NCBI GenBank assembly: GCA_017499595.2
Contig: CM039001.1
Span: forward strand, 1,302,001-1,366,000
Direction: 5' to 3'
DNA length: 64,000 nucleotides
From: Psilocybe cubensis
Lineage: Eukaryota
Shown here: positions 5,811 through 26,754 of the stretch, piece by piece
How the letters are laid out: the number at the start of each line of letters is the position of its first letter
How positions within the stretch are numbered: position 1 is the first letter of the stretch
Notes under the pieces: generated by a model
What the model saw: the letters and a program-made list of their open reading frames with translations, nothing else
Database searches by the model: none
Told to the model about the DNA's origin: nothing
Position numbers and translations under genes: made by a program

Positions 5811-6262
5811 ATGTCAGCAACGATATCCCAGACGATTACACGCCGCCTGCCTCTCAAAAGTGTTGCCCTCCCTCCCACTCTCAAGCCAGGCAAAGGAAAC
5901 TTGTATGAAGTGCTATCGCGGACCCCAACAGGCGGAGTTGGTACAGAGGTGTATCAAACACGATGGAGTGCAAAGAATATTCTGGGCTGCTACTGGCTAG
6001 TGACGCGTTCGGTGTTCAAAGATGAAGGAAAGCATGGTCGCGCGTGGGGTCGTTTATACTGGAAAGGTGTGCGCAATTCATGTCCAGCGCAAACGGCTGA
6101 ATAAACTTTGATTGGTTTCAAGGTGTCTGTGTGAGCCCTCGCGAAGAAAGAATTCGTGGCGCTTTGAAATATACATGGAGAGAGGGACGCTCGGGGTCAT
6201 CTCTTCTGGGGTCGACCCAATCTAGCTCTCCGGAACCTTCACAAAATGTATGTACAAACTAA
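5811..6262 (+). CDS. Mitochondrial ribosomal protein mS34-like (3' end approximate)
   Basis: NLYEVLSRTPTGGVGTEV...RW...CYWLVTRS...HGRAWGRLYWKG. After the intron at about 6068-6122 the frame continues EERIRGALKYTW. Confidence 0.75.
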
Positions 6263-6772
6263 TTTTTGACATTTTTCGGAGAAGTTCATTAATTTGCACC
6301 AGTAATATCGTACACTTTCTAATACCTTTCTCTTCCCCGGGGCCCGTGTAATGGATTGAATTTCCACATATAATATTGCTCTTCTCCGATGCAAATCCTC
6401 AAAGCGAAAACCCTCAACAATCAACTGAAAATACAATATCACCATCATTTTGTGGGCCTAAACATTACCTGGTCCTTGAACACAATTTTAATCCTTGAAC
6501 CAGCGTTGTAGAGCTCCTGAAGCCAGAGTGGGATTTCGAACGACGATGAGCAGTCAAATAATTTAACCTCTTCACGTGGGCAATGTACTAGTGTTATAAG
6601 AGTAGGATGCTATGACTTCGAGCAAATAAGCTTGATCTTTGAGACGTTTCGTATCTTTTCATTAAGTTGTACTGATGATAAATATTATACAGGAGACAAA
6701 GCGGATGTACTATATTCAACACACATCTGCCCTTTCAGGTCGAACCTCCTGCTGTGTATGTATGCAAGTTCT

Positions 6773-7893
6773 TTAGATACCCCTGTAGGTAGCAAGTTGA
6801 GAGTTCATGCGGGTGGTTTGTCCAGGGGTGAACTCAGTCATGCAGCTATCGTAACTGTAGTCCATGTAGTTGTCTGTTGGAGAAAATAAGAAACTGTATA
6901 TGAAATGGTTCCTACAAGTTGGACTTACGGATGGGGTCGACACCAGCGGAAGAGCAGGTATCACGGCCAATGGGGCACCCAGAAGCAGCGGAAGCCTCGG
7001 CAGGGGTGTCGGAGACGGAGTCACCAGTTCCAGAGCATCCGCCTTGGAAAGTGTGGTAGAGACCGACCCAGTGGCCGACTTCGTGCGTGAGCGTCTGGCC
7101 GAGATTGTAGTTGGTAGTGGTTCCTCCAGGGAGGGAAGAGTAGAGGAGGACTGATCGTCAAAATATTAGTTGGAGTGACTCGAAACATATTTAAACATCG
7201 AGTAAGAACACTAACCAACGCCATCATCCTTGTTGGAGCTGGAGAAGCTAGAGGGGAAGGTAGCATAGCCGAGCAATCCGCTAGTGGAGCTGGACTTGAA
7301 TCTGGAGAGGAAGGAATGTTATTACCTGCTGAGGTAGTTGCTCAATTGAAATAATAAAAACTTACCCAACAGAGTAAACGTTCAAGGTGGCCTTGGTACC
7401 TTGACGAAGAGCGTTCTTCATGGCGGTTTGGTAAGAGTTTGAAGGGCCAGCATTGTTAAACCAGTTGGAGTTGGTTGTCCTGGTGATGTTCTTGAGAACG
7501 AAGCTACGTCCGGTGGAAGCATAATCTTCGTTGAGAACATCAATCTGAGCCTTGATCTGGGAGTCACTGCAAGAAATAATTAGTACGGTTATGCTACCTT
7601 GAAATAGTGCTTGACATACGGAACATTCCCAGCTGAGAGGGAGGTGCCGGAAGAAACGACGTGGAAGTAGACTTCGATAGGGGGGTAAACAGCATTGGCC
7701 TTGACAGCAACTGCGTTGGCCTTGAAGTGAGCTTCCTGAATCTTGACCTGGGCATCAGAGATGACGGTTCCACAGTTCCTGTAATCAATTCTCAGTAAGC
7801 TATCACTTAAATATAAGAAATATTAGACACATACCTAGCGACAACAGTCGAGGCGGCGAAAAGGAGCCCGATAGTAATATTGCGGAGTTGCAT
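6773..7893 (-). CDS. Secreted M43 (pappalysin/ulilysin-like) zinc metalloprotease, paralog 1
   Basis: Signal peptide [20 protein letters not shown], intact [12 protein letters not shown] (HExxHxxGxxH), Met-turn [18 protein letters not shown]. Confidence 0.93.
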
Positions 7894-9185
7894 CGTGAAC
7901 TGGCTGAGGTCTCGAGAAGAAAACAAGGAAAGCTGGCACACTAGGCGATGCTGGCCTTCCCCCTCACTTTTTTGCCGTCTTATATGGTCCACAAGAATTA
8001 CACCATTCAACCAGAAAATATGGGTGCATATCTGTAAATTACTTTCGAACGCATGGTCATGTTCGATAGCAAACCTCAGCGCATGTTGTCGAATCAAGAT
8101 ACCTCCAAAATTTAGTGGTGTTGTGACCACTTAAAGAGATCGGCTACAACATTGTGTGGGTCGACTACGACAAGAAGGGGCCAAGACTGAAGAGAGTACC
8201 AAGAATTTCAATTTGAGGGAGTCACCACAAAGGCGCTGTCCCCAGATAGCTTGCCGTCAGATGGGTGTGTCGTTTACTGAAGCAGAAACGCGCGGGCGTT
8301 GAATCGTAATAGTCACCGGAATTAATGGACATCGTATCCCGCACAAGAATCAAAGATAACGCCATGGCAAACCATCGTGAATAAGGCTCGGAACCAGTTG
8401 ATAATCAGGGATTGCTTGTGGAGGACGCGCGCCTACATGACTGGACGGAATGTAAAAACCTCTATTGCAGAGAAGGTTGATGGGAAGACGGGTTGTGGAA
8501 CTGTGCATTAATGAATGAGCTATATTGGCGAGCAAGAGATCTGGGGTAGGTACGACTGTGCAGGACTCGACGAGTGTCGTCGGACCCTGATCTGTTGAAG
8601 TTGGGGCTCGGACGTTATGTATACATCATCGATGCAATCCGACACAAGAGGGCTTCCGACAGCTTAAATTGGGGCATCCAATTGGCTTCCAAGTTAGGGC
8701 AGGGTTTGATACCTCCCGGCCGGTCCGTGTGATAGTGGTATAGGTCTGGCGCTCTCAACCGGTGTGTTACTTGTGTTTTAAACAGGTGTTATACCACGTC
8801 ACGTGACTGTCGGACTTTTTACATATGACTGGTAAAACGACTACTAATTCTCATTTTTTAGGCTGTTTATGGCTTTACCAACAATTTCTCCAATATATAA
8901 ACAATAAATACAATACATATGTCACTTTCTCAAAGGCGCACAGTACCTTGGGCAGTTTGTGCGCCGTTTTCAGTCACATCAGGGTACGAGGTAGGGGTGT
9001 CACATGAATGTGACCCGCGAGTCACAAAGGTCGAATTTCGACAATGTTTGCAGTCTGCACGCCGGGGCATGAGCTGCTAAGGTATGAAAGGTGCGCGGTT
9101 CAATAGTGTATGGTACTTGGTATGATTTCGTGTAAAAAATTGATGTCACAGCAAAATGAGTATAAAGTAATATCTACCTGTATGA

Positions 9186-12100
9186 TTAAACAAAGTTATC
9201 TATGTTCCATTCACCCGGTTTGCCTTGAGCAAAGTTTGAATCATCATCGTGAGTTGTCCTTTCAAAAAATAATTTGGAGCCCGGTCCATTTGTGTCAACA
9301 TTGGTGATGAGCAAAACCAGGTTTTTATCATCAAGTTGCACAAAGGAAGAAATGTCAAACCGGTCAGATGTGCGAGTGAGTTGGATGGCACCTTCAGAAG
9401 TAGAGTTGGAGATGTGCAAAGCAGAATCCATGCGGTTGACTTCGTCCAAATCATATGGATCGGGATTATTGAACCATAGATGTTCCAAAGCCGCAGAATT
9501 GAGTTGGGGGTCAACATTGTCCTTGTTGACAAGGTCCATTAGCGTTGGAGCGGAGAATGTAGAGGGAGCTGAATTCATAGGAGATTCGGATATTGTGGAA
9601 AGATGAACACGAGCGCTATGCTTGAATCCCTTTTCACTGAATCCATTGACATAGTAGTCGTAAAGCTTCGCTGAGCTAATAAGATGCTCTGGAGTAATAG
9701 AGCTGCGACGTGCAGCATTGAACCAGCCAAGACGAGAGGCTGTTCTTTCATCACAAATCTCTGAAGGAGAGATGGAAAATATTTTGATTGCAACTCGCTA
9801 TAAGATAGGTCAGCTAAATGTGGCACAAAAATCGCAAAAATAAAGCTCACTGCAAGCAAATTACTGTTTGAATCTTGTGCAAATTGGTTCCACCATTTAA
9901 GAGGTTTTGTATTGCGTGTCAGGGGAGCTTGTTGGAACGGAGTCTGATTATAAGCATAGGCAATTAACTGGCGGATTAGAATGGGGACAACTTCCATTCC
10001 TGAATCTTGTGTGCGTAGTTGTTCGCCTTGGAAAATACAGAGAACAGATGTGAGAAGCAGCTTAAAAAGAGTGGGATAATTTTCTTTGGTCAATGCTTGG
10101 TCCTTTGAAAGTGGCGGCATGACAAGTTGTATTCCTCCATATTGATGAAATACTGAAGAATAGTTAGATATTAATTGGTACAAATCAGTTAATTAAGGAC
10201 ATACATGGATGAAGATAATATGCAAGAAAATATATGTGGTGAGACGACTCTTTCATCATCTGATTAAACCGATGATTGTAGATGTTGACAACTTCACTTC
10301 GAAGATTTCCAACTCCAATAACAGGAGATGCAAGAACTTGCTCCAAGTCGTATGCAATGCAGATCCAGCTATAGAAAACGTCGGCACAGGTAGTATTCTG
10401 ACCTTCGAGTGTAAGAATTGCCTTTGCTCCAGATGACAAAAGCGAGATAAAGCCATTCATAGAAGCCATAAACAAGTAGTGTTGAGCACCATCTTGAATA
10501 TATGGTAGAAGCTTCTTTGTCTGACAATAAAACTGTTAGAAATGCTAGTAAAATATGGGCATAAATATGTACCGGTGGAGTATCAAACTTTAGAACGTTA
10601 GATTTAATACACTTCTTGATCAAGGGCATGCAAGTGTAGACAGAAACAACTTGCGTATAGCTTGACGAAAACCGTGTGTCAGAATGTGACCTGATTCCTT
10701 GTGCCACTCCATCAACTTTGCGCTGAATATCCAGATGGAATGTGCCGTAGTTTGACTTTCCAAAATAGTTTGCAAGTGCAGATGAAATTGACAAAGTCTA
10801 CATGTATCAAATATTTCAACATCATAAAATTAACAAAAGTATTGTTTACATACGTCTTTAAAAAGCTTCCCGAGATCTTTCATGAAGAGATTCAAATTAT
10901 GACACGGATCGTAAATGTTAAGAATCCATGGATATTGCTTGTTGATTTTAATTCGAGCTGCTCGAACATTTGATCCACCATCACCTGCTACTGCACTATA
11001 ACGTTTTATGCCATATAGATTGAGAATCTAAACACAAACTTGAATCAGTATAAGTATAGAAAAAATTGGTTTAAAATTTACCCGTAAAGCAGCATCAACG
11101 AGAACTTCACCTGTTACAGAAATTCCATTGAAGACTCTTCCATCCGTAAAGAAAGATCTTCGTTTCGGAGTTGTTGTATGAAAAGTATAGATTTCATCCT
11201 TGGACCGTGAACTCCAGCCATCGAGAGATAGTGTAAGATGTGTCTTGCTTTCAATAAACTGTAAAAAGCTTTCACTCCAAGCAGAAACCTCTTGAGCAAG
11301 ATGTTTCGGAAAGAATGAGGAACGATCCGGAATGGTAAAATTTGGAGCTAAAGCAAAGCAAAAATTGACAAAGAACTCGCTGTCCATTGTTGCCCAGGGA
11401 AGTGCACAGCATATAAACATACGAAACATATGCAGCTCAATATTGAGTCGCTGCTGCTCGGTGATCTTTGCCGGATTCATGTACGTAAGAATACTAGACG
11501 GTTTGTTGACAGAAATAGACACTGATTTGCCGCTGCTCGTAATCCGATCAGATGAAGAAGAGACATTTTCGAGTTTTTTGGTGTGTGAACGAGAAGCGAG
11601 ATTCTTCACAACCAGGTTATACCAGTTTGGAAAGTTTGTAGCCAGCTTCTGAAATTTAAAATGAATGATATAATACTTTGAATATGCAAAGACATTACAT
11701 ACAGTACATTCCTGTGCATGATTTCTAATTCGAGTCGTGTCTCTCTGCACAGCCGCTCTATCACATCCAATGCAATAAACAATAGCTTTTGTTTTGACAG
11801 ACCCCGGAATTGATTGTTCAAACTGCAGAGTTACTGCATCTGCAAGATTGTCCCGAGTTTTTCCGCCTTTTCGAGCCTCACTGATAGACTTGGGGCCCCG
11901 AATAGGCCCAATATCTTCTCCAGGCTTTCCACTATCATGCAAGAGCTTTCTTTCAGCAACAAGCTTTGCACGATAATTGATAGCTTCTTGAGAGCCACCA
12001 ATACCAAGAACACCATCAGAAGATCCTGTGACACCGACAGATTCACATGGAGTTGAGTGTGGGAGTGTAGAGGCATCCAAAGATAGACCGTTTGAAGGCG

Positions 12101-12382
12101 GCTTAATTAAGAAATATTAGCTATACCGTGAAATGTAATAAAATTTTAAAAGCTGGACATACCGTAGGCCATGGTAAATGTTCTCCTTCTTTGTATATCC
12201 GTGTCCAAACCTCATTCAGCTTCTCCATGTATTGACTCCAGTCCTTCCAGTCTTCGCTTTTGTGATCCAAGATTGTTGAATTGACAGCATCCATTAGATT
12301 GGCAAGATTAACACCGTTATCTCCAGAATGAATAAATTGTTGACATAGGTCAACTAAAGTTTGGTAGTTGTTATGGTCTAGC
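9186..12382 (-). CDS. hAT-family transposase; original start codon displaced to 24671-24673 by the KDZ insertion
   Basis: BED-like CIGCD...IRNHAQEC finger, RNase H-fold LSLDGWSS, AGDGGSNV...YDPCHNLNL, DTRFSSSY, PLKWW and C-terminal dimerisation-region IFSISPSEICDERTAS. No stop or frameshift noticed once introns are removed. Confidence 0.9.
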
Positions 12383-12464
12383 CACCTGTAATTACCCTGC
12401 TTATATATAAAACCCTTGCACTGCAATAAAATGCTCCATACATGGCAGCAGGCACTTGCTGCAT

Positions 12465-12990
12465 GGATAATCTATTATCCATTTACTTAGTCTGCCTATC
12501 AATTATCCATTCCGTTATCCAAGAGCCTTGTTATCCATTATCCATTCCCGTGTGCGCCATTAACAATTGTTTCTATCCATTGTCCGCCGTATCATCCAAA
12601 GGGTACATTATCCATAGCCCCGCTTCATGATCCAACAGCCGTTATCCATTTCTGTGCGCGCCATTAATAATCTATTCCATCCATTGTCCGCTGTATTATC
12701 CAAAGGGTACATTATCCATAGCCCCGCTTCATAATCCAACAGCCGTTATCCATGTCTGTGCACCCCATTAATAATCGATTCCATCCATAGTCCGCCCTCT
12801 TATCCAAAGGGTATATTATCCATATACCCCTGAATTATCCAACTGCCCACTATCAATTTCCATGCAAACCATTCATGACCCGCTCTATCCATCATCTGTA
12901 TTCTTATCCATGGGTCATTTCCCCCTTTCATACCACGATATTCATTGCCCTGCGATTATCCAAGAGCCGTTTATCCACTCCCCTGCGCCT
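12465..12990 (+). repeat. Left subterminal tandem array of the KDZ element (about 104-bp unit, TTATCCAT-rich)
   Basis: Unit CCAACAGCCGTTATCCAT...CCATTAATAATC...TCCAAAGGGTACATTATCCATAGCCCCGCTTCAT recurs, e.g. at 12632 and 12736, with about three good copies plus degenerate flanks. Confidence 0.9.
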
Positions 12991-13201
12991 TATTCAACAC
13001 TATCTTCCAAGAAAACAATTACAATTCCAAGAAAACATACACTATAAATATACAGAATCACTAAAAGGATGTCAAGATGTACAAGGTACGTTCTGTCTGC
13101 ATCAGCTGGATGCGAGCGCAATAAAAAGCTCAAGAGAATTGAAAAAAACAGTCTGAATGTCCAAGATCACGTGTCAAAAACAAATGCCAGCGCATCACGC
13201 C

Positions 13202-16053
13202 TCAAGCCTTCGCTTTCTTTGTTCTTTTTTCCTTCCCAGTTTCCTCCGCCGCCTTCCTCTTGTTGTTCAGTTTCGCCTTTTGGAAGGTGTTGAAGGTGTT
13301 GAGTAGGTCACTTACTGCTAATTCCCAGAGACCATCCGAGGCTTGAGCCGAGTACCACCACTTTAACCCAACCATCACTGTCAACAGCCCATTGGGTCCA
13401 CCTTTCCGTAACGAAGCCATTGAATCTTTTGCCTTCGCAGTCTCGAACGACAACGGAAGGGAATTCGGGGTTTTGGTTTGACGCCACGCCGGCTGTATGG
13501 AGTTCCACCAGGTCATCCATGACTTCTGAAATTCGTCTTGACGGATAGCTGGGATAGCGGTGTATTTGCGGGATGAGGAAAGCCATTTCCCGAGGGCTGT
13601 TGGTCTGCCTTTCGCGGGGAGCCTCAACTGCAACGGTAATCAGTATCTTTATCTGCTTTTGTGCATGATCCGGGACTCACAGAACTCGTATCCATCTCAG
13701 CAATTTCCATTCTCTCGAAACTCTCCCATGCGCGCACACATTCCTGCCATTTTTCTACCTCGATATCTTTGAATAGATATTCACTCGCTGCCAACAGCCA
13801 TGCTGTGGTCTGTGGAGCATCCTTCGAAGCTGCTGCCTTTCTGTTACGACTACGCGTTGCACTGGCGTCCAAGTTCTCGCTTTTGTCTGGAGCCGCAGTC
13901 AAAGGTGCATGCATGCCACTCTCGGGAATAATTGGATCGTTTACTGCATGGTTGGATAGAACTCCAGCTGAGTTTGTGGCGCTGAGCACTGGCGCTGACG
14001 TCTGGGCAGGGACTATGGTGTGAGGTGCTGAGATGGAATGGTTTGGGTCCAATAGCATCGGTGCGTTTGCCTGTCCTGCCATCATATCCTGACTTTGTAA
14101 CATTTGGCCATGTAAACCAGGAAGCGTCACTGTGTTGTTTGTGTTGAGGGCAAGTGCGGTTCCCATCATGTTTGGATCCGCTGCGTACTGTTGCAGGGCC
14201 AGGTCAATTCTATCCCATTCCTCTTCTGAAAAGTTCAAGGTAAGTCCATCGCCCCTATTCGCATCACCCGCTTGTAGCCGCATCATATCCTGGCCTACAG
14301 CAGCTGTCAACTGGTCTATGTCTTGGCCACCAACTCCATCCGTCATAGAAATGGCAGCACCATAAGGCAAGAACGCAGCAACTGGATTTGGGGCCACCTT
14401 GGCCTGTTGAGGTAGAGGATTGGCAGGCGGAAGGAAGTTTTGTGCCTCAATGGTAGCGTGGGTAGCACCATTTGTAGCTGGGTAACAAGGTGGGCTTGGA
14501 CTTGCCACACTTTGAGTCGGTTGCACCTGAGCTGGTTGGACTGTGCTTTGTGTCATGACAGGAGCCTGAGCAAAGCCGATGGCCACCGCCGGCGCCGCTG
14601 TCATAGAGGCCATTGCAGTCTGTTGTGCGGCCTCAGGGGGAGTATGAGCTGCAGTTATGGTGTTTGGAATAGGGCCAGAAAGCTGAGCGGCACTTCCCAT
14701 GTGAGCATTGGTTGATGAGATGGGTACTGATGCAGCTGTATAAGTTGGATGGAAGGGCACCTGATTGATAGCAATTGGAAGGCCAGAAAGCTGAGCGACA
14801 CTGCCCATGTGAGCATGGGTTGATGAGGTGGGGACCAACGCAGCTGGGTCGGGCACCTGATTGACAGCGATTGGAAGTGCATTGCTCTGAATCTCTGGTT
14901 GTGTAGTCACAGGGGGAGTTGTTTCCGACAAGACATTTTCTTGCCCTGCGTCGCCGGTTTCAACTTTGCTGGTACTGGCAACTTGGTTCTCTTCTGGCTT
15001 TGCCTTTGAGCTATTGAGAGTTTGTCGGTCGCGATCCTCTTGCGCTAAAGAAAATGGTTGATTAGGTCACTATGTGTTAGAAATACAGATAAATTGCTCA
15101 CAGAAAACATTGTATAAAAAAAGTCTGAACGGCGATAGCACATGTTGGTAAAAATGTTCATTCGCAATAGAAAACAGTTGTTCATATTTGTCTCGACCGT
15201 TGTGGACAGCGACAGTACGAATTTTGCCTTGATCAGCAGGCTCAGGTCCTCCAGCAATTACTGTGAAAACCCATCCGGTACGACTGCTCATTTCATCTAT
15301 AAACGCTTGGATAGTTTCCGGCAATGTCAAGAGATTACTAACTTTGTATCAGTAAGACTTTAGCACAAAGAATAGATCACTTACATTGCGCATTCTTCTG
15401 GAGACATGACTTCCGGCATGTCAGGAATTTGTCCCTTCAGCTCCTTGAGCTTTGCCAACTCGGCACGAATTTCCGCCTTTACCTCATCAGACTCGTCATT
15501 CCAGGCCTCCCCGGTGCACTTGTTGATGATTGCAATTCGGTGACCTTCAGGATTGGTGCGGAGAGCCTCTATTACTCGTGGCCTAATGCGTTCATCATAA
15601 TATTTCTTGGAATACAAATTTGTTTCCGAGAGAAGTCGGGGAGCGTTGTTGCCACCAATAACAATGGTCGGACCTCGCCGATGTTGGGTGCCGGCCCCAC
15701 GATTATTAAACCAATTAACAATTTGCTGTTACAAATATGACCTCGTCAAAGAAACTCATACACTAAGTATGAATTGTGCTTACGTTTTTCCGCAACTTAA
15801 CCCATTCTGCATGAGAAAGTTCGGTTTTCGTTTGAGGCAAAACAACAGGTGCATTTTTCTTTTTCTTCTTCTTTTTTGGAACAGTCATTGGTCTAACTTC
15901 AGCCTCAGGCGTAGGCCACAAGACAAAAAATTCTTGGTATATTTTTGTCCAAAAATTGGGGGTGGTTTTTGTACGCTGGGACGCCTGGAACTCAGGAACC
16001 TTGGCGGATAGAAACTCAATTTGTTCGGGAGTCCCCCACGGTAGCGGCGGCAT
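13202..16053 (-). CDS. KDZ cargo gene A: large protein with helical N-domain, HMG-box-like segment, low-complexity linker and Trp-rich C-terminal domain (multi-exon)
   Basis: Spliceable exons: MPPLPWGTPEQIEFL...FFVLWP, poly-Lys NLS-like run, YSKKYYDERIRPRV...EAWNDESDEVKAEI (HMG-like), RTGWVFTVIAGGPEP, and WMTWWNSIQPAWR...LRKGGPNGLLTVMVGLKWW. HMG-type genes are known companions of fungal KDZ elements. Confidence 0.75.
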
Positions 16054-16355
16054 TTTGATCTAAGTATAGCAGTTGTTCTAAGAATAAATGAATGTCAAAT
16101 TGTTTGTTTTTTAAGCGCACGCAAACTCACCTCAAATAACAGAGTTAGACTTAAGGTCCAGAAAATGCAGTAAGACCTTCTAGCTACTTCTTCGATTTGA
16201 CGGCAATAGCTTGCTTACATTATTGAGAGATTCACCGCAATTTACCGTGTAACTGTACAGTTGCTGATGCTTCTTTGGACTCTGCATATAAAGATGCTCC
16301 TATCTGCCGCAATCTTATCCTTAACTCCCTACTCGCAAAAAAAACCTCTCACAAA

Positions 16356-17425
16356 ATGGCTCAACAAAGTACACCTCCCCCAACTCTCCCTAATTCTACC
16401 GTCCCTCCCTCTACCGCCCCTGCAAGCCGTATAATGTCTACCCGTGTTGGCGACGTTATCAATCTCCTTCTTGCACTAAACAATGCTGGTACGTGCCCAT
16501 TTTTGAGTTTCATGTTAATTTCAACTTGTTTACATTTAATCAGGATTAGAAGTTGTTCGTACACCCGATGGCGTTGATCATGCTTCAGGGTTGGAAAACC
16601 TTGCCATGGGGGAGCTTATCTTGATTCTCCAAATCATGGGCATTCATGTCAAGGGTAATCGCGCTACTGCTGCACCCCCTCCTCCTTCTGATAGTAAGTC
16701 ATCTTCGACTCCCTTTAACCTAATGTTTTATTTAATTGGACTGTAGGCCGTGATCCCTTGGTCCAAGAGATTGAACAGATGGTTATTTCATCTGCTCGTC
16801 GTCAGGCTATTAATCTTTTCTTTAGGCTTACCAATGGGCCGTTGAGTAAGTGAACACTGTTCATACTATCATGCTCAGCACAATCTAATTAATTTTAGCC
16901 GTCCCACCTGTCATTCTTGAAGAGTTATCATCAACTGTGGCTCCCCCTCCTTCGTCTGTTGAACCACAGGCCACCGTCACTGATCCTGCCCTACTTCCTC
17001 CAAAGTCCCAGTCTGCCTCCGACACTGTCATGCCCAAAGGCTTTGTGTGCATGTCCTGCAACACGTATAACCCTATTCGCCCATCTGAAAAGCCAGTCTA
17101 CGTTGTGTTTTGTGGTACAGATGTGGGGGTCTTTGACCATTGGTATGTTCCACATTCTTTTGAGATTGCATTTTGCTCAATTTAACACATATTTAACAGG
17201 AAAGATGCTCAGAGCCTTGTTTCTGGCATATCTCATGCTTGCCATTGTCGTTATAATAGTCGCGAGGAGGGTGAGAGGGCGTTCCAAGCTGCTTTGACTG
17301 CCGGAAAGGTTCGCATACTTGGTAATCCTATTGCTGCGCCTGGAGCTATTGTCTCTTCCTTGTCCCCAAATGCCCCCAATGGCACCTCTGGCTCCTCCAG
17401 CGAGGCCTCTAGTAGCTCGGATTAA
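16356..17425 (+). CDS. KDZ cargo gene B: protein with RNase H1 N-terminal (hybrid-binding/caulimovirus viroplasmin-like) domain preceded by a CxxC motif
   Basis: Spliced C-terminus reads FVCMSCNTYN...PVYVVFCGTDVGVFDHW|KDAQSLVSGISHACHCRYNSREEGERAFQAAL, which fits the YxVxxGxxxGVFxxW...V.G......F.S..EA..AF pattern. TAA at 17423-17425. Confidence 0.8.
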
Positions 17426-17775
17426 TGAGTAGACTTACTCCACCCTCGGGGTTTTTCCTTTTCCGTTCAATATCGTGTAGACAGCACCATTTGTCACCGC
17501 GTATGAAAAGTTTCCCCGCACTTTTAGTAGCACCACTTGTATCTCTTGTACATCTCATTTTGATTTCTTGTCTGTGTTTCCGAATATATCTTGAACTTGT
17601 GCTGCTCTCCATATCCGTGTGAATGAAATCTTCAATAATCAAATAAAATATTATTGAATGTCTCTTTTGTAGAGTCATTATATTATGCCATGTACCCCCA
17701 TGCACCGTAGCTTCAATGTCGAACGATATACAATGATGTTTGTACTATATTAAAAGTCCAATAGAAGTAATAACC

Positions 17776-18469
17776 CTATTGCGAAACCTTTTGAAATTCA
17801 AAGGATTTAGCATTGTAGTTGCGTTCAACGAATTCAAGGTCTTCCATTGCAGTCAATTCAATCTCTTGCAACCAAGATTGTGTCTTCTCTAGCAGTTTTG
17901 CAAGAGCGACTGTCTTATTCCACTCTGGGCCAACTCCTGAACACATATATATATGGTTTTTATATCGGGAAATTGGCCCAAGAAAGTGCTCTATCTTGTC
18001 AACCGATTCCGATAATTCGTGCATGTCTTGATTGCTGATAAACTGGAGGCAGATTGCCTCAGTATGTGCAATAGGATCCGATTTGATAAAGGTGTTGAAG
18101 CGCCGGTAGACTCGAAGAACTTCGTCCAACCAAGTGGCCGCCGGTGGCTTTGACTTGGAGACAGGCTCTTGTTCAACAGCCTGTGCTTTACGTGCCGTTT
18201 CAATTCTAGAAATGAAGATTAATTCAATCTATAGAGATTATGCACATTCATAATCAGCAGGAATACCTTTTTTGTTGGATGCGAGCATATTTTCTTCTGC
18301 GACGTCGGTTTATGCTATCCTTGCATCTAAAAAACATTATAAAACATGTTTGTAACCAGATTTATGGGAGGAAAACAACTGAATGCTACTTCTCATAATA
18401 TTTCTTGCTCTTCTGCCTATTTGCGGCAAGTTTCTCAGCTTCAGAAAAATACTTGCGCTGTCGTCCCAT
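17776..18469 (-). CDS. KDZ cargo gene C: small protein with highly basic N-terminus and helical C-domain
   Basis: Exons MGRQRKYFSEAEKLAANRQKSKKYYEK / CKDSINRRRRRKYARIQQK / ...WLDEVLRVYRRFNTFIK...WLQEIELTAMED, joined by canonical introns. Confidence 0.7.
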
Positions 18470-19049
18470 TGGTAAAGGTGAAAGCCAGGTAGCGATTTAT
18501 TAGAAACTTTGCATTACTTACACGCCATTTCAGGGCTTCGTCTGACTTTTTTAACTACCAGGTAAACCCCCCCTCCAAAGGGTACCAATTGAAACATTGA
18601 ATTAATCTACACTCAACTCTCGTCATCCAGAGCTTTACAACCATCTGTGCCGATGTTCTATGGTTTTTGAACTCTGCAAGATAAGTTTTCAGGCTATGTC
18701 TAGACTGGGATTGAAAATGTAAAATAATAATAGAAGACCTTACCGTCATCCATTTGTTCGTTGGCTATCAATGGCTGGCAGCACCCTAATGTCAACCTTC
18801 AGCTTCATTATCCATTTACTAGTCCTTTATTGATTGGGACTTACTTTACCGTCATCCATTCATTCAATTGTTATCCATGAGTTGTTTGCAACACTCTTGT
18901 CCTCGTTGTCCATTTCCTTGCCTGTTATTGATCAATTATTTTTGCTGACTCGCTGCTTATAAGTTGGGATGAACGCCACAAAACTCATCTGCATCACCTT
19001 TGACCTGCCCATAGACACCACTATCGCGTTTATCAGCAACTCACAACCA

Positions 19050-19578
19050 ATGGCCAAGGTTAAGCAAAGACGCCGTCGTACAGATAATTTCAAAGGTCCA
19101 TCGGTGAGTAGACTTGAGCCTGATTGTTATAAAATGTGATCATTTTTACTAAATTGTCGTTCAAATTTGTAGGCAGTCACAATAGAGCCCGGCATTAGAC
19201 CAGTTACATTGGATACGAAGTCCAAACAAGACAAATTTCTCGCCGATGCTGGCCCATATTATCGCCAGGCCAAGTCTAAGGGAGAAAAGGAAGAGTTTCT
19301 TCACGAAATCAGCCAACTTTGGTTTAGAATTTGGCCGGAGGATCCGTTGAATACGGCAGACATTGATTTTGCACGTCACAGACAAAAGAATATTATGAAG
19401 GTGAAAGTTGTGTTTATATTTTTGTATGCCGCTAACTAACGTCTATATGTTACAGAAAATCAGAACAAGGCTGTTACTCCTCGGTGCCTTTGGGATTGTG
19501 GAAGGAGATACGTTGTGGAGGGACTTTATTGCTGCCAAAATGCACGAGCTCCATCCTGACAAGCTACCCTCTGTCTGA
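19050..19578 (+). CDS. KDZ cargo gene D: small basic protein resembling the N-terminal domain of cargo gene A
   Basis: Three exons: MAKVKQRRRRTDNFKGPS / ...KQDKFLADAGPYYRQAKSKGEKEEFLHEISQLWFRIWPED... / KIRTRLLLLGAFG...LPSV-TGA. Confidence 0.65.
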
Positions 19579-19653
19579 TCTAGCCACTGTTTTGTTCGGC
19601 TTAATGTACCTACTACATAGTGGTCCAGATTTTAAATTTGCACAAATTATACT

Positions 19654-22600
19654 CTAGTGACACTCAACCATTTTGTATGCATTACGGCCTTCTGACATGG
19701 TCGTCAACTTCTCTGTTACACCATCCCATTGTTTCGCACAACGGTCACCTATATCACGTCGTATATCTGCCTGTTTCTTTGCATAAGCAATCTTACCAGA
19801 ATTGATAGCTTGTGCATCTCGGTTAGGTACATCCGTCGAGTCGATGATATCCTGTGCACGAGAATCCCACTGAGCGGCTTGCCAAGCAAAAAAAGCAATA
19901 ACACGGCGCATCTCCTCTGCTAATAATACACACTCCTCTTGCCAGCGATGTGCGCGTGCACGGGCTTTGCACCATTCGATACGAAGAGCTGGACACTAGC
20001 ATTTGTTTGCATTCAATTAGGTAAGGTAAAGACAACACACCTGCCTGTGTACACTTTTCGGCGTCTTCGCCCATACCGTGTACCTTCCATATCCAGGACA
20101 GTTTCTTGCGGCCTTCACTTCCAGAGTCGTCCATAGAGCTCAGTCCTCTAACATCAGTGTCCAGCAGTGGACGAAGGATATCACGCCACGTGTAGTATAC
20201 CGTTGGCGTTGAAAGCAAATCAAGAGCTTGATACGCAACATTGTATCGCGCTGTTGCAAATTTAATCTTTTCTTCAACAGCTGCGAGCAACGTCAAGCTT
20301 CTTGTCTGCATACGCTGTCCTCGTGAGTGTCGCTTTTTTGAGTTTAGCATATGTGAGCGAAGGAGTAAGAAAGCACGGAGGTTGTTGAGGCAATCTTCAG
20401 CCTGGGCATATCGGTACTGCGATTCGCATTTTAGCAATATGTGGGATGAAAATCGGATGGTTTCTGTGTTGTAGGAAGGCAAATATAGCTTGATATCCTG
20501 TACCGCTACTGGTGTCTCAGCCTGCAAGTTTTCGCGCGCACGCAGAGCTGCAACTGCAGGCATATAAAGGTGCTGTATATTTATCCAAGCATCAATGCGT
20601 CGTTTTAATGAGTTTGATCGTTCGAGAATTTTAGTCTGTTGGATGTTCGTAGAATGGGCTCCAAGTTTGGAGATGTCAAGCGCAAGTCGTGCTCTAGTCT
20701 TGTTTGTAACCATGTAAAAAATAGCCTATAAACGACGTACTGTGATTCCTCAAGCTGTAAGCCCTGTGATATCAAGACACTCGGAGTTACTTCCTCATGT
20801 AAAGTAGTCATCTCTCCGCGTTTTAATGCATCTGAGTCCTCACGAGCTAATTGAAGACGAACATCGGATTCCTTGACAGAACCTAGCAATGCACCATAAA
20901 CAATAGAACAAGAATCAGAAAAATACACGTACTATTCTTCGGAATCACATAGGGATTCGGTTGACTGGAGTCCTTTTCCCATGTCAAACACATCTGGGTC
21001 CATTCCGACGTCGATTCTTCTGGCAATGCAGCGTCAAACTCAATGAACGCCTCGACCTGTTCTTGTCGCTCTTGAATAGCTTCCTTCGCTTTCCGTAAAA
21101 ATGTTACAACTAAAGTGCTTGTCAATATATGTGCATAGATTGCAGAATATTACGACGTACCAATCGTGATAATTTTTCGCCAGTTATAATCTCCAAAATG
21201 GTCATCCAATGTGTCGTTCCGAGACCCTGGCCCCATTTCCTTTGTGCTGCTGGCTATACCGTTTGCCGTTGCCCATCCTCTCTCTGGTGCCTCCCCATCT
21301 GTGCGCCCAACTCCCGGAGTATAGTTGAAAGAGAAAGACGTTTGGCATTTCTGAATATGAGCAGCAAGGTGGAATTTTGGTACGAGGTAGACAATGGAGA
21401 GATTTGATGGATCGGAGAGCACATTCTTAGGATATAATTGGCACCTTTTCATGAGATTGATCCACCATTGGCAGGCAATGTCGTAGGAGACAACAAGACG
21501 GAGTAAAAGTGTGGCTGCGATTGTTGATAAGAAGAAATAATCCATATTAACGTATCTACGGCATCATGTGAGTCATGTTGACATGCAAGCATGTGACTGA
21601 AGACCTTACCTTTCACCCTTTTGTAAGTCTCCTACTGCCACGGGTCGCTTCATGTCGTGTCGACTACATTCGGCTGTACCAAGTCCACTTGCTGCTGTCC
21701 CATGTCCACCTCGTGAGTTAGCCGATTTGATAGCATCGTGGTTATTGCATGAGCTCTTTTCATCTGCAACTTGACCATCGTAGTTTGCCAAGTAGTTTTT
21801 GAATTTGCAACTCTCAACCATATAGGCATATCCATGATTAAGCCCAGGGTCTCGCTCATCTGTAGATACGTTCATTCGCTTCAAACGAAAGTTGGCATCA
21901 ATAGCTATAAAAAGAGAATAAAGCCATCTATTTTTGGACGTGACAATCAGACCCAATTGCCAGTGGACAACACCAACGAGTAAAAATTGGTACGTACTGT
22001 TCTGATTCTGGCCTCTCCTTCCAATTGTCGGGTAGATTGATGCCCGGGTGGGGACATGCAGGACATAGAACAGCACATTCACCCTCTTTAGTCCCATTAA
22101 CACCGGTCTCAGAGTGACCTCGACCCATCCGTTTGAGGAGACGTACATGACGCCACTCACGTATGATCCTCAAGAAGACAGGATATCTGTCCTACATATT
22201 GAATATTAAAGATAGCAGGATAATAGAAGAAATGGAAGAGCTCACTGGTGGTGCCTTTGTGCCGGTGTTGTCTGTCAACCGTGATAATGTAGAGTAATAC
22301 TCGTATCCCGAGACCTTCGAGTTAAATGAAAGGAGCTGAAAGTGTTCCAGCACATCAAATGTAGCCGCTGTTTTGGGATCGCCTACTGTAGAAGGAAATA
22401 AGCGGGCGCGAAGAAGTTGGATGGGCTTGGATGGTGCAGAAGGGCACCCGCAGTAGTCTAAGGCAATTTCATGGATTCCTGTACGCGCAATGACCACAAA
22501 TTCGTCGTTGAAAGCTACCATTGGTATAGGACAGTCATCATGTCCCAGCTGCACTCGCATTCCAAGTTTCTTGAGGCTGGTCCTGCGAAAGTAATGTCCA

Positions 22601-23354
22601 GTCCAGACCTGCAAATTTGTCAATAATTCAGTATCATCATAGCCAACCCCACTCGCCTCGATTCTATGAAATGGGTTGACCGAATGAGACCGGAGAACAC
22701 AAGCGAGACACAACAGAGATCCGCTCCAACAGTCTTTGCAGCGAAACGCGCCTGCTTCGAGGTCCGAAATACACCCAATTTCAGAGCATTTCTGGAGATT
22801 TGCCTGCCCACCAATACCCTCCAGCCGGAGAAACTCTTCAACGTAGGTGTCAATATGCGGAGTCCAGAAGTGGATGGGATGTGTCTAATCGAATATGTGA
22901 GTGGTAGGTGCTGAAACACACATCTATTAGAGCAGGAAACTGTACGTACCGATTGTGTTTTTCGTTTTTTCTGTGGAACCTCTTCTTCAGGATCAGCTTG
23001 AACCTTATCTCCAGTCTTCAAGTTTGGCTTGAGATAATTCTTTAGCCCCAATGCCTCCAATTCGCATTCTGCCATTTCTTCCAACTCAAGATCACCATCA
23101 AAAATCCTATACGGAGATTCTTCGCTCAGCACCCAATCAAGTCGAGGAGTAGGCGATTCCACAGAGCCTAGAGGAGGGGGTGTGGGAAGCATAGGCTGAA
23201 TTCCTTGCGGCAGCGGCATCCGTATGGTATGGTGCGTGCGTCCATGGTATTCAGTGTGAATGTCGCCAAACGATGCTGTTTTCGCGTCTCGTTCATCAGG
23301 AGAGATATATTCGTCATAATAAACCTTTTTCTTGCGATTCACTCGGCGTTTCAT
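19654..23354 (-). CDS. KDZ transposase with N-terminal CxC2 cysteine cluster (multi-exon)
   Basis: CxC2 region (CKDC...CLACVLRSHSVNPFHRIE, QLGHDDCP, YCGC, QLLRARLFP), ECAVLCPACPHPGINLP, and KDZ core LFIAIDANFRLKR, ECSRHD...GDLQKGERYVNMDY, VSYDIACQW, VPKFHLAAH, GRTDGEAPERGWA. The predicted catalytic D-D-E residues are present. Confidence 0.95.
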
Positions 23355-23479
23355 GTTGTAAGTTGAAAGAACCTGCGAGCTAAGTGTATACACAAAAGAG
23401 ACAAGGAAGCTTTGAACAGAAACGTCATTTCCAAGGAGACTAGAAGCGGAAACAAGAGGATGTATAACTCATACTGATA

Positions 23480-24570
23480 TGGATTATTAGCTCAGAGTGG
23501 TTGATGGATATTTTACAAGGAAATGGATAGACTTCAAACATTGATGGACAGTAAGGAAAGGTATCAATGACAGTGAATGATGGGAAATGTTACGGGGAAC
23601 CAAATTAATAAGTGCCTGATCTTCACGGGTGACAAGCGGGATGGATTAACGGGAGGCCATGGATGACAAGGGCATTCAATAATCAACGTTGGTATGGATG
23701 GAGACTGCGCACTGCACGGGTGTCAAGAGTGATGGATAAGTAGAGGGGCAATGAATGATTAGGGCAATAAATGAGCGCGATGGATAATGAGAAGAGAAAT
23801 GGATGTTGAGGGTGATGAATAATGAACGCACATATCGATAGGCGCCTGCACTACGCGGGTGTCAAGCCTGATGGATAATCAGAGAAATGGATGTCGAGGG
23901 CGATCAATAATGAATGTGGGAATGGATGAGGGGCAGCCTGTGCAATGGTGGAGGGCGATGGATAATAAGAAAGGCAGTTGATGTCGAGGATGATGAATAA
24001 TGAACATAGATATCGATAGGCGCCTGCACTGTGCGGGTGTCAAGCCTGATGGATAATCAGAAAGGCAATGGATGTCGAGGGATATCAATAATGAACGTAC
24101 ATATTGATAGGCACCTGCACTGCGCGGGTGTCAAGCGTGATGGATAATCAGAAGGGCAATGGATGTTGAGGGAGATCAGGCTGATGGATAATTATATGGG
24201 CAACGGATGACAAGGGCAATGAATAATGAACGTACATATCGATAGGCGCCTGCACTGCGCGGGTGTCAAGTGTGATGGATAATCGGAAGGGAAATGGATG
24301 TCAAGGGAGATCAGGCTGATGGATAATCATATGGGCAACGGATGACAAGGGCAATGGATAATGAACGTACATATCGATAGGCGGGTGCACTGCGCGGATG
24401 TCCAGCGTGATGGATAATCAGAAGGGCAATGGATGTTGAGGCCCATGGATGACATACTAGTTATGGATTACGAAGGGGTATGAATGACAGCGTGGGTATT
24501 GAATAATGGCTCAGCAGTTTGGGGAATACTATGGATAAAGTTCTAATGTATCTATCATAAAGGCGTTGGA
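23480..24570 (-). repeat. Right subterminal tandem array of the KDZ element (about 90-135-bp units, ATGGATAA-rich)
   Basis: Core ATAATGAACGTACATATCGATAGGCGCCTGCACTGCGCGGGTGTCAAGCGTGATGGATAATCAG occurs near 23820, 23998, 24088, 24223 and 24358, plus a degenerate copy near 23700. Its ATGGATAA octamer is the reverse complement of the left-array TTATCCAT. Confidence 0.92.
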
Positions 24571-25565
24571 TAATTATTGATGGGGAATGCATTGCCGTGG
24601 CTCATATATGAGGTATGCGCAAGGTCTTCTGGAGGTTGATATATAAGAACGACTGCTACGCCTCGTCTAGCATAGTTGATAGAGCAGTTTACTGGTAGAA
24701 CAAACAGGACAATCGACGATGAATGTACAATAAATAATTTAGACCGAGAAATTCCGATTTTTATTGCTCCCGGAGAATCACACCAGTAAAACACACAGAA
24801 TTTCCGCCTCCAGTCGTGTTATTGGTATATCACGTGTGTTACATTCGTGTAATACCTTGGCGTGGTATACCGGTATGTAACAAACCCTGCACTATTCCAA
24901 GTTGATCCCAAGAGACTTGTTTACATAGAGCTTGTGCGGCATGATTTTGATAACGAGCGAGCGACAGCGTGTTGAGAATGCTGCCATATGAACAGATTAG
25001 CAAGTGACCGCAAGTCGGACGGGGTAAGTGGGAGTTATGAACCCGTTACTACCCCCGGGCACACAACGCGATTTTGAGAACGTGAGAGACCTAATGATGG
25101 GTTCTCAGTATCATTAGACGGCATTCCTTTTATTACCACTGCTAGCTTGTGTTGTCGTTTTTCTTTAAAATATTTCAGTTTCGTTCAAAGTTCATGCGTA
25201 ATCTCCTCCAGGTTCAACAACTGTGAGAAGTACACACCGGTTCTTAGATTGAAATTAATAACATTCCTGCCCTCTGTCAGCAGAGCTCGTAAAGAGCTAT
25301 AGCATAGATACTTACCTCCCAATACATTTTGTTTCGCGTGGATGAATAACTTCTTAGAAAGAGCCGCGTGTCCTGGATGATCTCGTTGCCTTCTCGCCGA
25401 CAATAAAGTATAATGCAAGCACAAGCCCACGTGTTAATTTAAATAACATAAGATTTAAGCTACAAAGGTTAAGTACGTGTTGACTTGGGCATACATCTTG
25501 CGCACAATGTCCCCCGTTGAGATATATGCCTCAGCATGAGGACCTTAAAATTCGGAAGAGTTTTT

Positions 25566-26754
25566 TCAAGCTGAGATGCCACGGTATGTAGCGATTTGTG
25601 ACCTGAGACGCGTAATTTGTCCAGCTGTGAACTCAGTCATGCATGAGTCGTCTGAGTAGTCCATGAAGTTGTCTGCAAGTAAATTAATTGAGCTTCCTGC
25701 TGTACCATGCGTGGATGTGCAACAACGTACGAATGGGGTCAACGCCAGGGGATTTGCAGGTGTCGCGACCGGTTGGGCACCCAAAAGCAGCAGAAGCCTC
25801 GGCCGGTGTGTCCGAAACTTGGTCGCCTAAGCCTGAACAGCCTCCTTGGAAAGTGTGGTACAGACCAACCCAGTGGCCGGCTTCGTGAGTCAAGGTCTAG
25901 AAGATATTGAAATGTGGCTGATGATTAAAACTTCCTAAAATAAAACCTACCTGACCAAGGTTGTACGGAGAAGCGCTACCTCCTGGAAGAGAAGAGTATA
26001 AGATTACAACCCCGTCGTCACTGGGTGCACCAGAATAATCAGATGGAAATGTGGAGTAACCGAGGAGCCCTGCACCGGCACCAGAGTTGAATCTATAGAT
26101 GAAATAAATGAGTAGGTGAAGGAGTCACCCTGGTGAAATGACTAACCCGACTGTGTAGACATTGAGATCTTTAGGGCCGCCAACTCGGAGAGATGATTTC
26201 ATGTCTGTTTGAGACGATGTGTCAGGCCCCACGCCATTGAACCATCCTGAGTTGGTGGTATGGCTAGTACTGGCAAGGACCCAGGTTATACCTGCACTGG
26301 CATAAGCCTTGTTCATGACAGCAATTTGATCTTTGATTTGGGAATCCCTGGTAGTTTGTTTGGTACGCTTCTTTCCCGTAAACATGAAGACGTGGCGTAC
26401 GGAATATTGCCTCCTAACAATGTATTATTTTGTTGAATGACATGAAAATGAACCTGCAGGAGAAATTAGCAAGGGAATTCTATCAACTGCAATGTCCGGA
26501 AGTTACGTTTATAGTGGCAGTAGATGCAGATGCAAAAGAAGGCACAGTGACTTTGTTTGCATTGAAATGGGCTTCAGCCTTTGCGAGTTTTGCATCGCTG
26601 ATGACCGTCCCACACACTCTAACAAAGGAAGAGTCAGAGATATATGATACTCTAGTAGCGATAACATGAACCTTTGTGCAATAGTCGAATTCAAAGGTGT
26701 CGCAAATGCTGAAGTCGCGCTAAGGAGCGCGGTGATCAAGGGGAAGCTGAACAT
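25566..26754 (-). CDS. Secreted M43 zinc metalloprotease, paralog 2
   Basis: Signal peptide [54 protein letters not shown]. Closely similar to paralog 1. Confidence 0.93.

Follow-up and report, generated by a model that had tools for sequence, protein, structure and literature searches.

The window analysed here is a 64,000-nucleotide stretch of Psilocybe cubensis DNA (assembly GCA_017499595.2, contig CM039001.1, forward-strand positions 1,302,001 to 1,366,000; all coordinates below are those of the window), and it carries a 16.2-kb composite of two DNA transposons, in which the ends of a hAT element at 8695-24894 enclose a 12,282-bp KDZ element. The composite probably arose by nested insertion in two steps, both events being very young and polymorphic within the species. 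At the outer level, the two copies of an 8-bp target site duplication (TSD), TTCCAAGT at 8687-8694 and 24895-24902, match perfectly, and the terminal inverted repeats (TIRs) next to them, which are 25 nt long and lie at 8695-8719 (plus strand, at the 3' end of the transposase gene) and 24870-24894, are 84% complementary (21/25); the TIRs and duplication reported by an earlier reading made from the letters of the window (the sequence-only reading) were thus reproduced. At the inner level, the KDZ element occupies 12383-24664 on the minus strand between two copies of GTCTAGC (12376-12382 and 24665-24671). As that reading had also held, it sits in the start codons of the hAT transposase gene: on the minus strand, GTCTAGC consists of the G of the hAT ATG together with codons 2-3, and codon 4 onward is read from 12375.

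The hAT element is consequently split into two parts on the minus strand, namely a body at 8695-12382, with the 3' subterminal region and codons 4-938 of the transposase gene, and a detached 5' end at 24672-24894, with the TIR, a 221-bp leader or promoter region and the first two bases of the ATG. Measured from the right hAT end, the ATG (24673-24671, minus strand) is 221 bp inward, and 12,289 bp, the sum of the KDZ element and one copy of GTCTAGC, now part it from the remainder of the gene, in agreement with the roughly 220 bp and 12.3 kb of the sequence-only reading. Removal of the KDZ element and one TSD copy restores a 3,911-bp hAT element with an ATG-started transposase gene of 938 codons and seven canonical introns. 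Both duplications are unmutated and no damage to the reading frames was found, as had been claimed, with 1085/1085 residues of the KDZ transposase matching an annotated protein and the 938 hAT codons free of frame damage. The recency proposed for both events is borne out by an empty site in all four sequencing runs compared, an uninterrupted hAT start in two of them and near-identical KDZ copies elsewhere in the genome.

Alleles of the locus in other strains

Fourteen sequencing runs were listed, among which X1 to X7 contain 0.94-0.99 of the sampled words of 6200-12600 (three being possible source runs). The comparison covered 7300-26300 in four runs, using the contigs of X8 and X9, which are partial carriers, and the raw whole-genome shotgun reads of X13 and X14, which bear the species label organism B, like X2, a possible source run. 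Runs X10 and X11, guessed to be RNA, have shares of 0.24 and 0.20, and no RNA run is listed as carrying 6200-12600.

All four runs contain an empty site, in which 8686 is joined to 24895 and 16,208 bp are skipped; the joint, with nine letters fitting both of its sides, is carried by a single contig in X8 and another in X9, by 24 X13 reads and by 16 X14 reads. This site has one unaltered TTCCAAGT and no footprint. These empty sites might be excision products of the hAT element or of the whole composite, in keeping with the polymorphism of the locus and the ability of hAT elements to excise. Such an origin is very improbable, however, because hAT excision typically modifies the duplication (PMC9910405, as far as the available text of that paper goes), whereas the single TTCCAAGT has no extra or changed letters in any of these contigs and reads, and the flanks of the empty allele in the X8 and X9 pieces are nearly identical to the window (0 letters differ over 7300-8686 and 1-2 over 24895-26300). 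Excision of Ac macrotransposons in maize is likewise described there as leaving a modified TSD footprint, and on this comparison the empty site looks never occupied.

An uninterrupted hAT start, given by the joint 12375>24665 that skips 12,289 bp, was found in two of the four runs (10 reads in X13 and nine in X14); the contigs of X8 and X9 lack it. The joint fits both sides over seven letters, so that these reads fix the KDZ boundaries and confirm the 7-bp TSD, GTCTAGC, to the base. Both the empty site and the KDZ-free hAT start, alleles for which the sequence-only reading had proposed a search, thus exist in the runs compared. Moreover, X13 and X14 reads that end at 8694/8695 and 24894 enter mixed unmatched sequence (agreement 0.51-0.60), and hAT ends are therefore present at several other sites.

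At a likeness of 90% or more, the KDZ family is absent from the four runs. X8 and X9 have a depth of 0 across the KDZ interior (12372-24417), and in X13 and X14 no bin exceeds 0.5 per direction; X13 has a depth of about 33-42 in the flanks and about 25-38 in the hAT body. This absence from near-identical strains, set against at least 4-5 copies in the annotated genome, suggests a very recent burst, invasion or introgression. Three of the four KDZ-free runs carry the organism B label, which is common to some composite-carrying runs.

All four runs also contain the joint 9199>24856, which indicates a short hAT derivative that has retained roughly 505 nt at one end and 39 nt at the other. In the contig pieces of X8 and X9 this diverged derivative differs at 22 letters over 345 nt, and it adds to the depth at the left end of the hAT element.

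Assemblers can be misled by repeats, and as the genome has repeated copies of both elements, the nested arrangement could in principle be an artefact joining unrelated repeats. This explanation is scarcely credible, since each nesting level is flanked by a perfect duplication whose length is the one to be expected of the family concerned (8 bp for hAT, 7 bp for Kyakuja), the two hAT parts fuse into one continuous reading frame, and the joint in independent reads agrees with the element boundaries to the base. The locus tags, in addition, place the passenger and transposase genes of the KDZ element four genes apart on one 4.15-Mb contig.

The KDZ element and its copies in the genome

The KDZ transposase gene (19654-23354, minus strand) has nine exons and encodes 1085 amino acids with CxC2 and KDZ domains. 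The open reading frames (ORFs) at 21153-22884 (minus strand) match the Pfam family KDZ (PF18758) with 138.6 and 67.4 bits and CxC2 (PF18803) with 136.6 bits, and the nine-exon model, read from 23354 down to 19657, is identical at 1085/1085 residues to the P. cubensis protein P0002 (JR316_0004538).

Kyakuja families have been characterized by 7-bp TSDs, 5'-CA..TG-3' termini and the lack of TIRs, and Zisupton and Dileera families by 8-bp TSDs (PMC12730594, available text). No TIRs were found in a hand comparison of both ends of the present element, in which 6/17 outermost positions are complementary, and the sole inverted match is a 12/14 stretch lying 18 nt in from each end. The element begins with CA at 12383 but ends with ..TC at 24664. 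From its TSD length, the missing TIRs and one matching terminus, it is best called Kyakuja-like. A second repeat pair, ATATATAA at 12403 and 24639, was considered as the KDZ TSD and rejected, as it leaves the ATG out of frame and the reads support GTCTAGC.

The motif ATGGATAA occurs 28 times in the window against 2.74 expected, and 25 of the 28 matches fall within the KDZ element. Eleven form a left subterminal array at 12463-12911 (minus strand; 10 minus-strand motifs and one plus-strand motif), which includes three tandem 104-nt units at 12535-12846, while 12 form a right array at 23732-24538 (plus strand), which is inverted relative to the left one and includes five tandem 135-nt units at 23763-24436. 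These inverted subterminal arrays are candidate binding sites for the KDZ transposase. The remaining two matches, on the minus strand at 18808-18878, lie deep in the element beside a 106-nt spaced direct repeat, and this pair may be what is left of an end that was internal or older.

The KDZ element also carries a six-exon passenger gene for an 846-residue protein (13202-16053, minus strand, read from 16053 downward), which shares exact seven-residue words with the annotated protein P0163 (JR316_0004534) at 845/846 residues. The look-alikes of this protein in the Atlas are clusters of unnamed hypothetical proteins of Basidiomycota (score 0.91). The remaining interior (16100-19650) has ORFs on both strands with no Pfam-assigned function, and locus-tag numbering suggests three annotated genes there. 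P0163 and the 41 interior ORFs of at least 45 amino acids at 15.9-19.7 kb gave no Pfam match at E<=0.01 (0/42), and Pfam scans of the ORFs of the element found no TET/JBP domain. An HMG_box match reached 16.8 bits against a cut-off of 25.4 and, being below threshold, was not used.

In the annotated P. cubensis genome, an exact-sequence look-up placed the transposase variant of this window on one contig. The variant P0165, on three further contigs, is one residue off the window copy (1084/1085), and P0166 also agrees at 1084/1085 residues, while the passenger protein P0163 is identical on five contigs. In three other KDZ copies the accession numbers run from passenger to transposase with an offset of +4, and the two locus tags of the present copy are likewise four apart, a matching spacing that indicates that the gene order is repeated among the copies. 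The annotated genome thus contains a minimum of 4-5 near-identical KDZ copies, and a single-copy status of the element was dropped in view of the family members on three more contigs. Since near-identical transposase and passenger copies are found on several contigs, the KDZ family moves by itself. Codon 652 of the transposase (region of 21110), two codons past an exon boundary, encodes Val here and Glu on the three other contigs (V652E), this being the sole difference over 1085 residues.

The hAT element and its transposase gene

The restored hAT gene is predicted to have eight exons and seven GT-AG introns of 52-61 nt (12162-12102, 11702-11649, 11081-11028, 10853-10798, 10572-10521, 10204-10153 and 9850-9798, minus strand), with an undamaged frame that ends in a stop at 9186. 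The introns were chosen by enumerating GT..AG candidates and scoring them against relatives; five of the seven begin with GTATGT, GTAAAT or GTGAGC, and branch sites resembling CTAAY or CTGAC are present in several. The 938-codon model is 49% identical to P0013 from Gymnopilus over residues 1-476, with the first residues aligning from residue 1, 40% identical to P0001 over residues 40-899, and 41% identical to P0022 over residues 107-899. The largest minus-strand ORF of the element (11031-12116) had one named long relative, P0001 (974 amino acids, Mycena citricolor), at 35% identity, and in tblastn P0001 aligns piecewise, in differing frames, from 12029 down to 9306.

With its ATG and promoter region split off, this hAT copy is probably non-autonomous and unable to make full-length transposase. 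The next in-frame Met after the ATG is codon 31, and expression from read-out transcripts is conceivable.

An exhaustive HMMER search returned 394 relatives at E<=0.001, the closest named ones being from Gymnopilus junonius, Hebeloma cylindrosporum and Mycena citricolor, and protein searches and cluster look-ups brought up no member of this hAT family among the annotated P. cubensis proteins. A Pfam scan of 21 of the 22 listed relatives of at least 500 amino acids (the repetitive, 1454-residue P0054 was omitted) showed that 13/21 match DUF659 at E<=0.001, six of them above the curated cut-off, while 4/21 match Dimer_Tnp_hAT (PF05699; one above the cut-off) and 2/21 match zf-BED; 6/21 have no Pfam match, and 1/21 matches an unrelated family alone. 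P0001 itself scores 18.5 bits, below the cut-off of 21.4, and when the threshold was relaxed to 1, the ORF pieces of the window matched DUF659 alone (E=0.13).

A profile was also built from 14 relatives, which are 35-49% identical to the window gene where compared, with the window sequence itself left out. Against the PDB, this profile matched the Hermes transposase with E=1.3e-17, and Hermes accounts for four of the five matches at E<=1. Candidate hAT catalytic motifs were read by eye as ..LDGWSS.., ..GDGGSN..CHNLNL.. and ..CDERTAS.., and in alignment A1 the aspartate of the first motif (D383) is invariant and that of the second (D446) nearly so (>=90%). Because of the 8-bp TSD, the TIRs and the matches of its relatives to Hermes, DUF659 and Dimer_Tnp_hAT, the outer element at 8695-24894 is placed in the hAT superfamily. 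The transposase with catalytic motifs described by the sequence-only reading stands with one qualification: the gene is intact, but Pfam does not recognise its pieces in the window, and the motifs thus come from reading by eye and from relatives.

In the 473 nt of the two hAT subterminal regions, which comprise the detached 5' end and the outermost 250 nt at the other end, GGTATA occurs five times (0.30 expected) and GTGTTA four times (0.18 expected). The regions bearing these motifs lie outside the KDZ insert, which is 223 bp from the right end.

Insertion history of the locus

The 8-bp TSD outside marks the outer event as a hAT insertion, and the 7-bp TSD inside the hAT element shows the KDZ insertion to be the work of the KDZ transposase. 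In the favoured account, a 3,911-bp hAT element of autonomous type would first have entered the spacer between two Peptidase_M43 genes with an 8-bp duplication, and a KDZ element would then have entered it directly behind codon 3 by its own transposase with a 7-bp duplication, cutting off the remaining 935 codons from the ATG and the promoter region of the hAT gene. Both insertions would have followed the split from the empty-site strains. The outcome is a 16.2-kb segment with intact hAT ends and, inside it, a complete and apparently autonomous KDZ element with its 846-residue passenger gene. The structure of the locus, its two duplications, the empty targets of both elements in other strains, the undamaged frames and the several copies of the KDZ family are observed, and we infer the order of events at the locus, the loss of hAT autonomy and a possible movement of the whole segment by hAT transposase from another copy.

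Alternatively, the KDZ element might have entered a hAT element elsewhere, and the 16.2-kb composite might then have been pasted here by hAT transposase from another copy. Such a joint arrival would agree with the two intact hAT TIRs, with the position of the GGTATA and GTGTTA motifs outside the KDZ insertion, and with the hAT copies that have an uninterrupted 5' end elsewhere in the species; the short derivative, keeping 39 nt of the right hAT end in all four runs, further suggests that little of this end may suffice, and the ends of maize Ac move 10-28 kb (PMC9910405, available text). We nevertheless consider it unlikely, since it takes three events against two, no second composite locus was seen in the four runs compared (all of them KDZ-free), and the KDZ family has its own 7-bp TSD signature and several near-identical copies, which explain its spread without hAT. 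The four insertion-free runs lack the whole KDZ family and therefore do not discriminate between the histories. The simplest history has two insertions, not three.

Several points weigh against the two-step reading or against the identifications on which it is built. The order of events could have been another one, in which an already nested unit arrived, and a KDZ-free hAT element at this very site was seen in none of the four runs (0/4), an observation that joint arrival would also accommodate. As for the hAT element, its own ORF pieces in the window have no Pfam match at E<=0.01, its introns are predictions only, and the candidate DDE triad was assigned by eye after hAT motifs. As for the KDZ element, the published Kyakuja termini fit one end only, and the copy counts refer to protein records of the annotated assembly, not to inspected DNA.

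It is plausible by analogy that a hAT transposase provided in trans could mobilise the 16.2-kb unit, because the hAT ends are intact, uninterrupted copies exist and Ac ends move segments of 10-28 kb. A stronger version, in which a working two-transposase element arrived whole through hAT transposase acting in trans while the KDZ family, possibly a very recent invader, also spreads by itself, is likewise unlikely. Occurrence of the composite at a single locus would not count against joint movement, because cut-and-paste transposition adds no copies. The sequence-only reading had gone further and regarded the composite as one hAT-bounded element able to move as a unit and as a possible route to giant two-transposase elements; no observation supports either proposal, and the KDZ element spreads alone. 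The locus is an ordinary nested insertion; nested DNA transposons, large KDZ elements with passengers and hAT macrotransposons are all known already.

Comparison with known systems

Nested transposons are commonplace, and the structure itself changes little. The ends of KDZ elements have been defined only recently. What the locus adds is a base-exact pair of occupied and unoccupied targets for a Kyakuja-like KDZ element, together with the inverted ATGGATAA arrays and the sharp presence or absence of the KDZ family among very close strains. The locus also provides independent support for the 7-bp duplication and missing TIRs of Kyakuja. Moreover, a cultivated mushroom species is at present polymorphic for the KDZ family as well as for the hAT family, which makes it a possible natural system for testing whether hAT ends can carry a second autonomous transposon.

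The KDZ element resembles Kyakuja (Kyakuja-1_LB and Kyakuja-2_LB of Laccaria bicolor) in its KDZ domain with an N-terminal CxC cluster, its 7-bp TSD, the lack of TIRs, the agaricomycete host and the presence of several genes within the element (Kojima 2025, PMC12730594, available text). It differs in having only one matching terminus, and in that no TET/JBP gene was found in it. Its long inverted ATGGATAA subterminal arrays set it apart as well, such arrays being unmentioned for Kyakuja in the available part of that paper. Nothing on KDZ elements in Psilocybe was found in the literature searched, with the limit that the supplementary family lists of PMC12730594 may include Psilocybe. Likewise, no paper on hAT elements or on transposon-linked structural variants in P. 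cubensis turned up, as judged from the titles listed.

Like KDZ1-3 and KDZx1 of Cryptococcus (bioRxiv 10.1101/2024.08.15.608186, available text), the present KDZ element is large and mobile, has extra ORFs without recognized domains, is polymorphic among strains and inserts into genes. The Cryptococcus elements, however, are 6.4-10.9 kb long, belong to the Dileera and Zisupton clades and have CxC1 or CxC4, with 8-bp TSDs for KDZx1, whereas the present element is 12.3 kb long with CxC2 and a 7-bp TSD.

The outer element shares with DUF659 hATs of the fungal and plant type (those of Gymnopilus, Hebeloma and Mycena, and Hermes) an 8-bp TSD, imperfect TIRs starting with TAG, short subterminal repeats and a single transposase gene, along with motifs recognized by eye, namely a BED-like CxxC...H...C, a first aspartate in DGWSS and a C-terminal ...DERTAS.... 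It stands apart from them in that its nearest named protein is only 49% identical and its own pieces remain under the Pfam thresholds.

As a whole, the composite has foreign DNA between a 5' and a 3' hAT end, one of each and correctly oriented, which is also the arrangement of the maize Ac/Ds macrotransposons, where units of 10-28 kb excise and reinsert with hAT transposase (PMC9910405, available text). In maize, however, these units arise by alternative transposition of two separate elements, whereas here a single hAT element has been expanded from within. The composite is also comparable to Teratorn of medaka, in which two mobile entities are combined and a cut-and-paste transposon supplies the ends (PMC10175614, available text), but Teratorn is a piggyBac-herpesvirus fusion of about 180 kb that exists as a multi-copy unit, whereas the composite was observed at one locus.

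Genomic surroundings and sequence polymorphism

The composite lies in an intergenic site between two tandem Peptidase_M43 paralogues (50.5 and 43.8 bits), which are located at 6817-8000 and 25566-26700 on the minus strand. A self-BLAST of the window found no second copy of the hAT or KDZ element within it. It did find 78-82% DNA similarity between 6817-7085 and 25616-25887, a match explained by the position of both segments in the tandem paralogues.

The right flank of the composite is polymorphic, with a skip or replacement of 200 bp (25643>25844) in the X8 and X9 contigs; in X13, 43 reads have an unmatched end at 25844 and 38 have one at 25887. The polymorphism at 25643-25887 may reflect gene conversion or divergence within the M43 paralogue. 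Over 7300-26300, C>T and G>A changes make up 70 of the 116 variant places in X13, with similar shares in the other runs, and the 40 variant rows listed, out of 122, all lie within 8902-10382. Such a pattern would be expected from the deamination of methylated transposon copies or from a process like repeat-induced point mutation.

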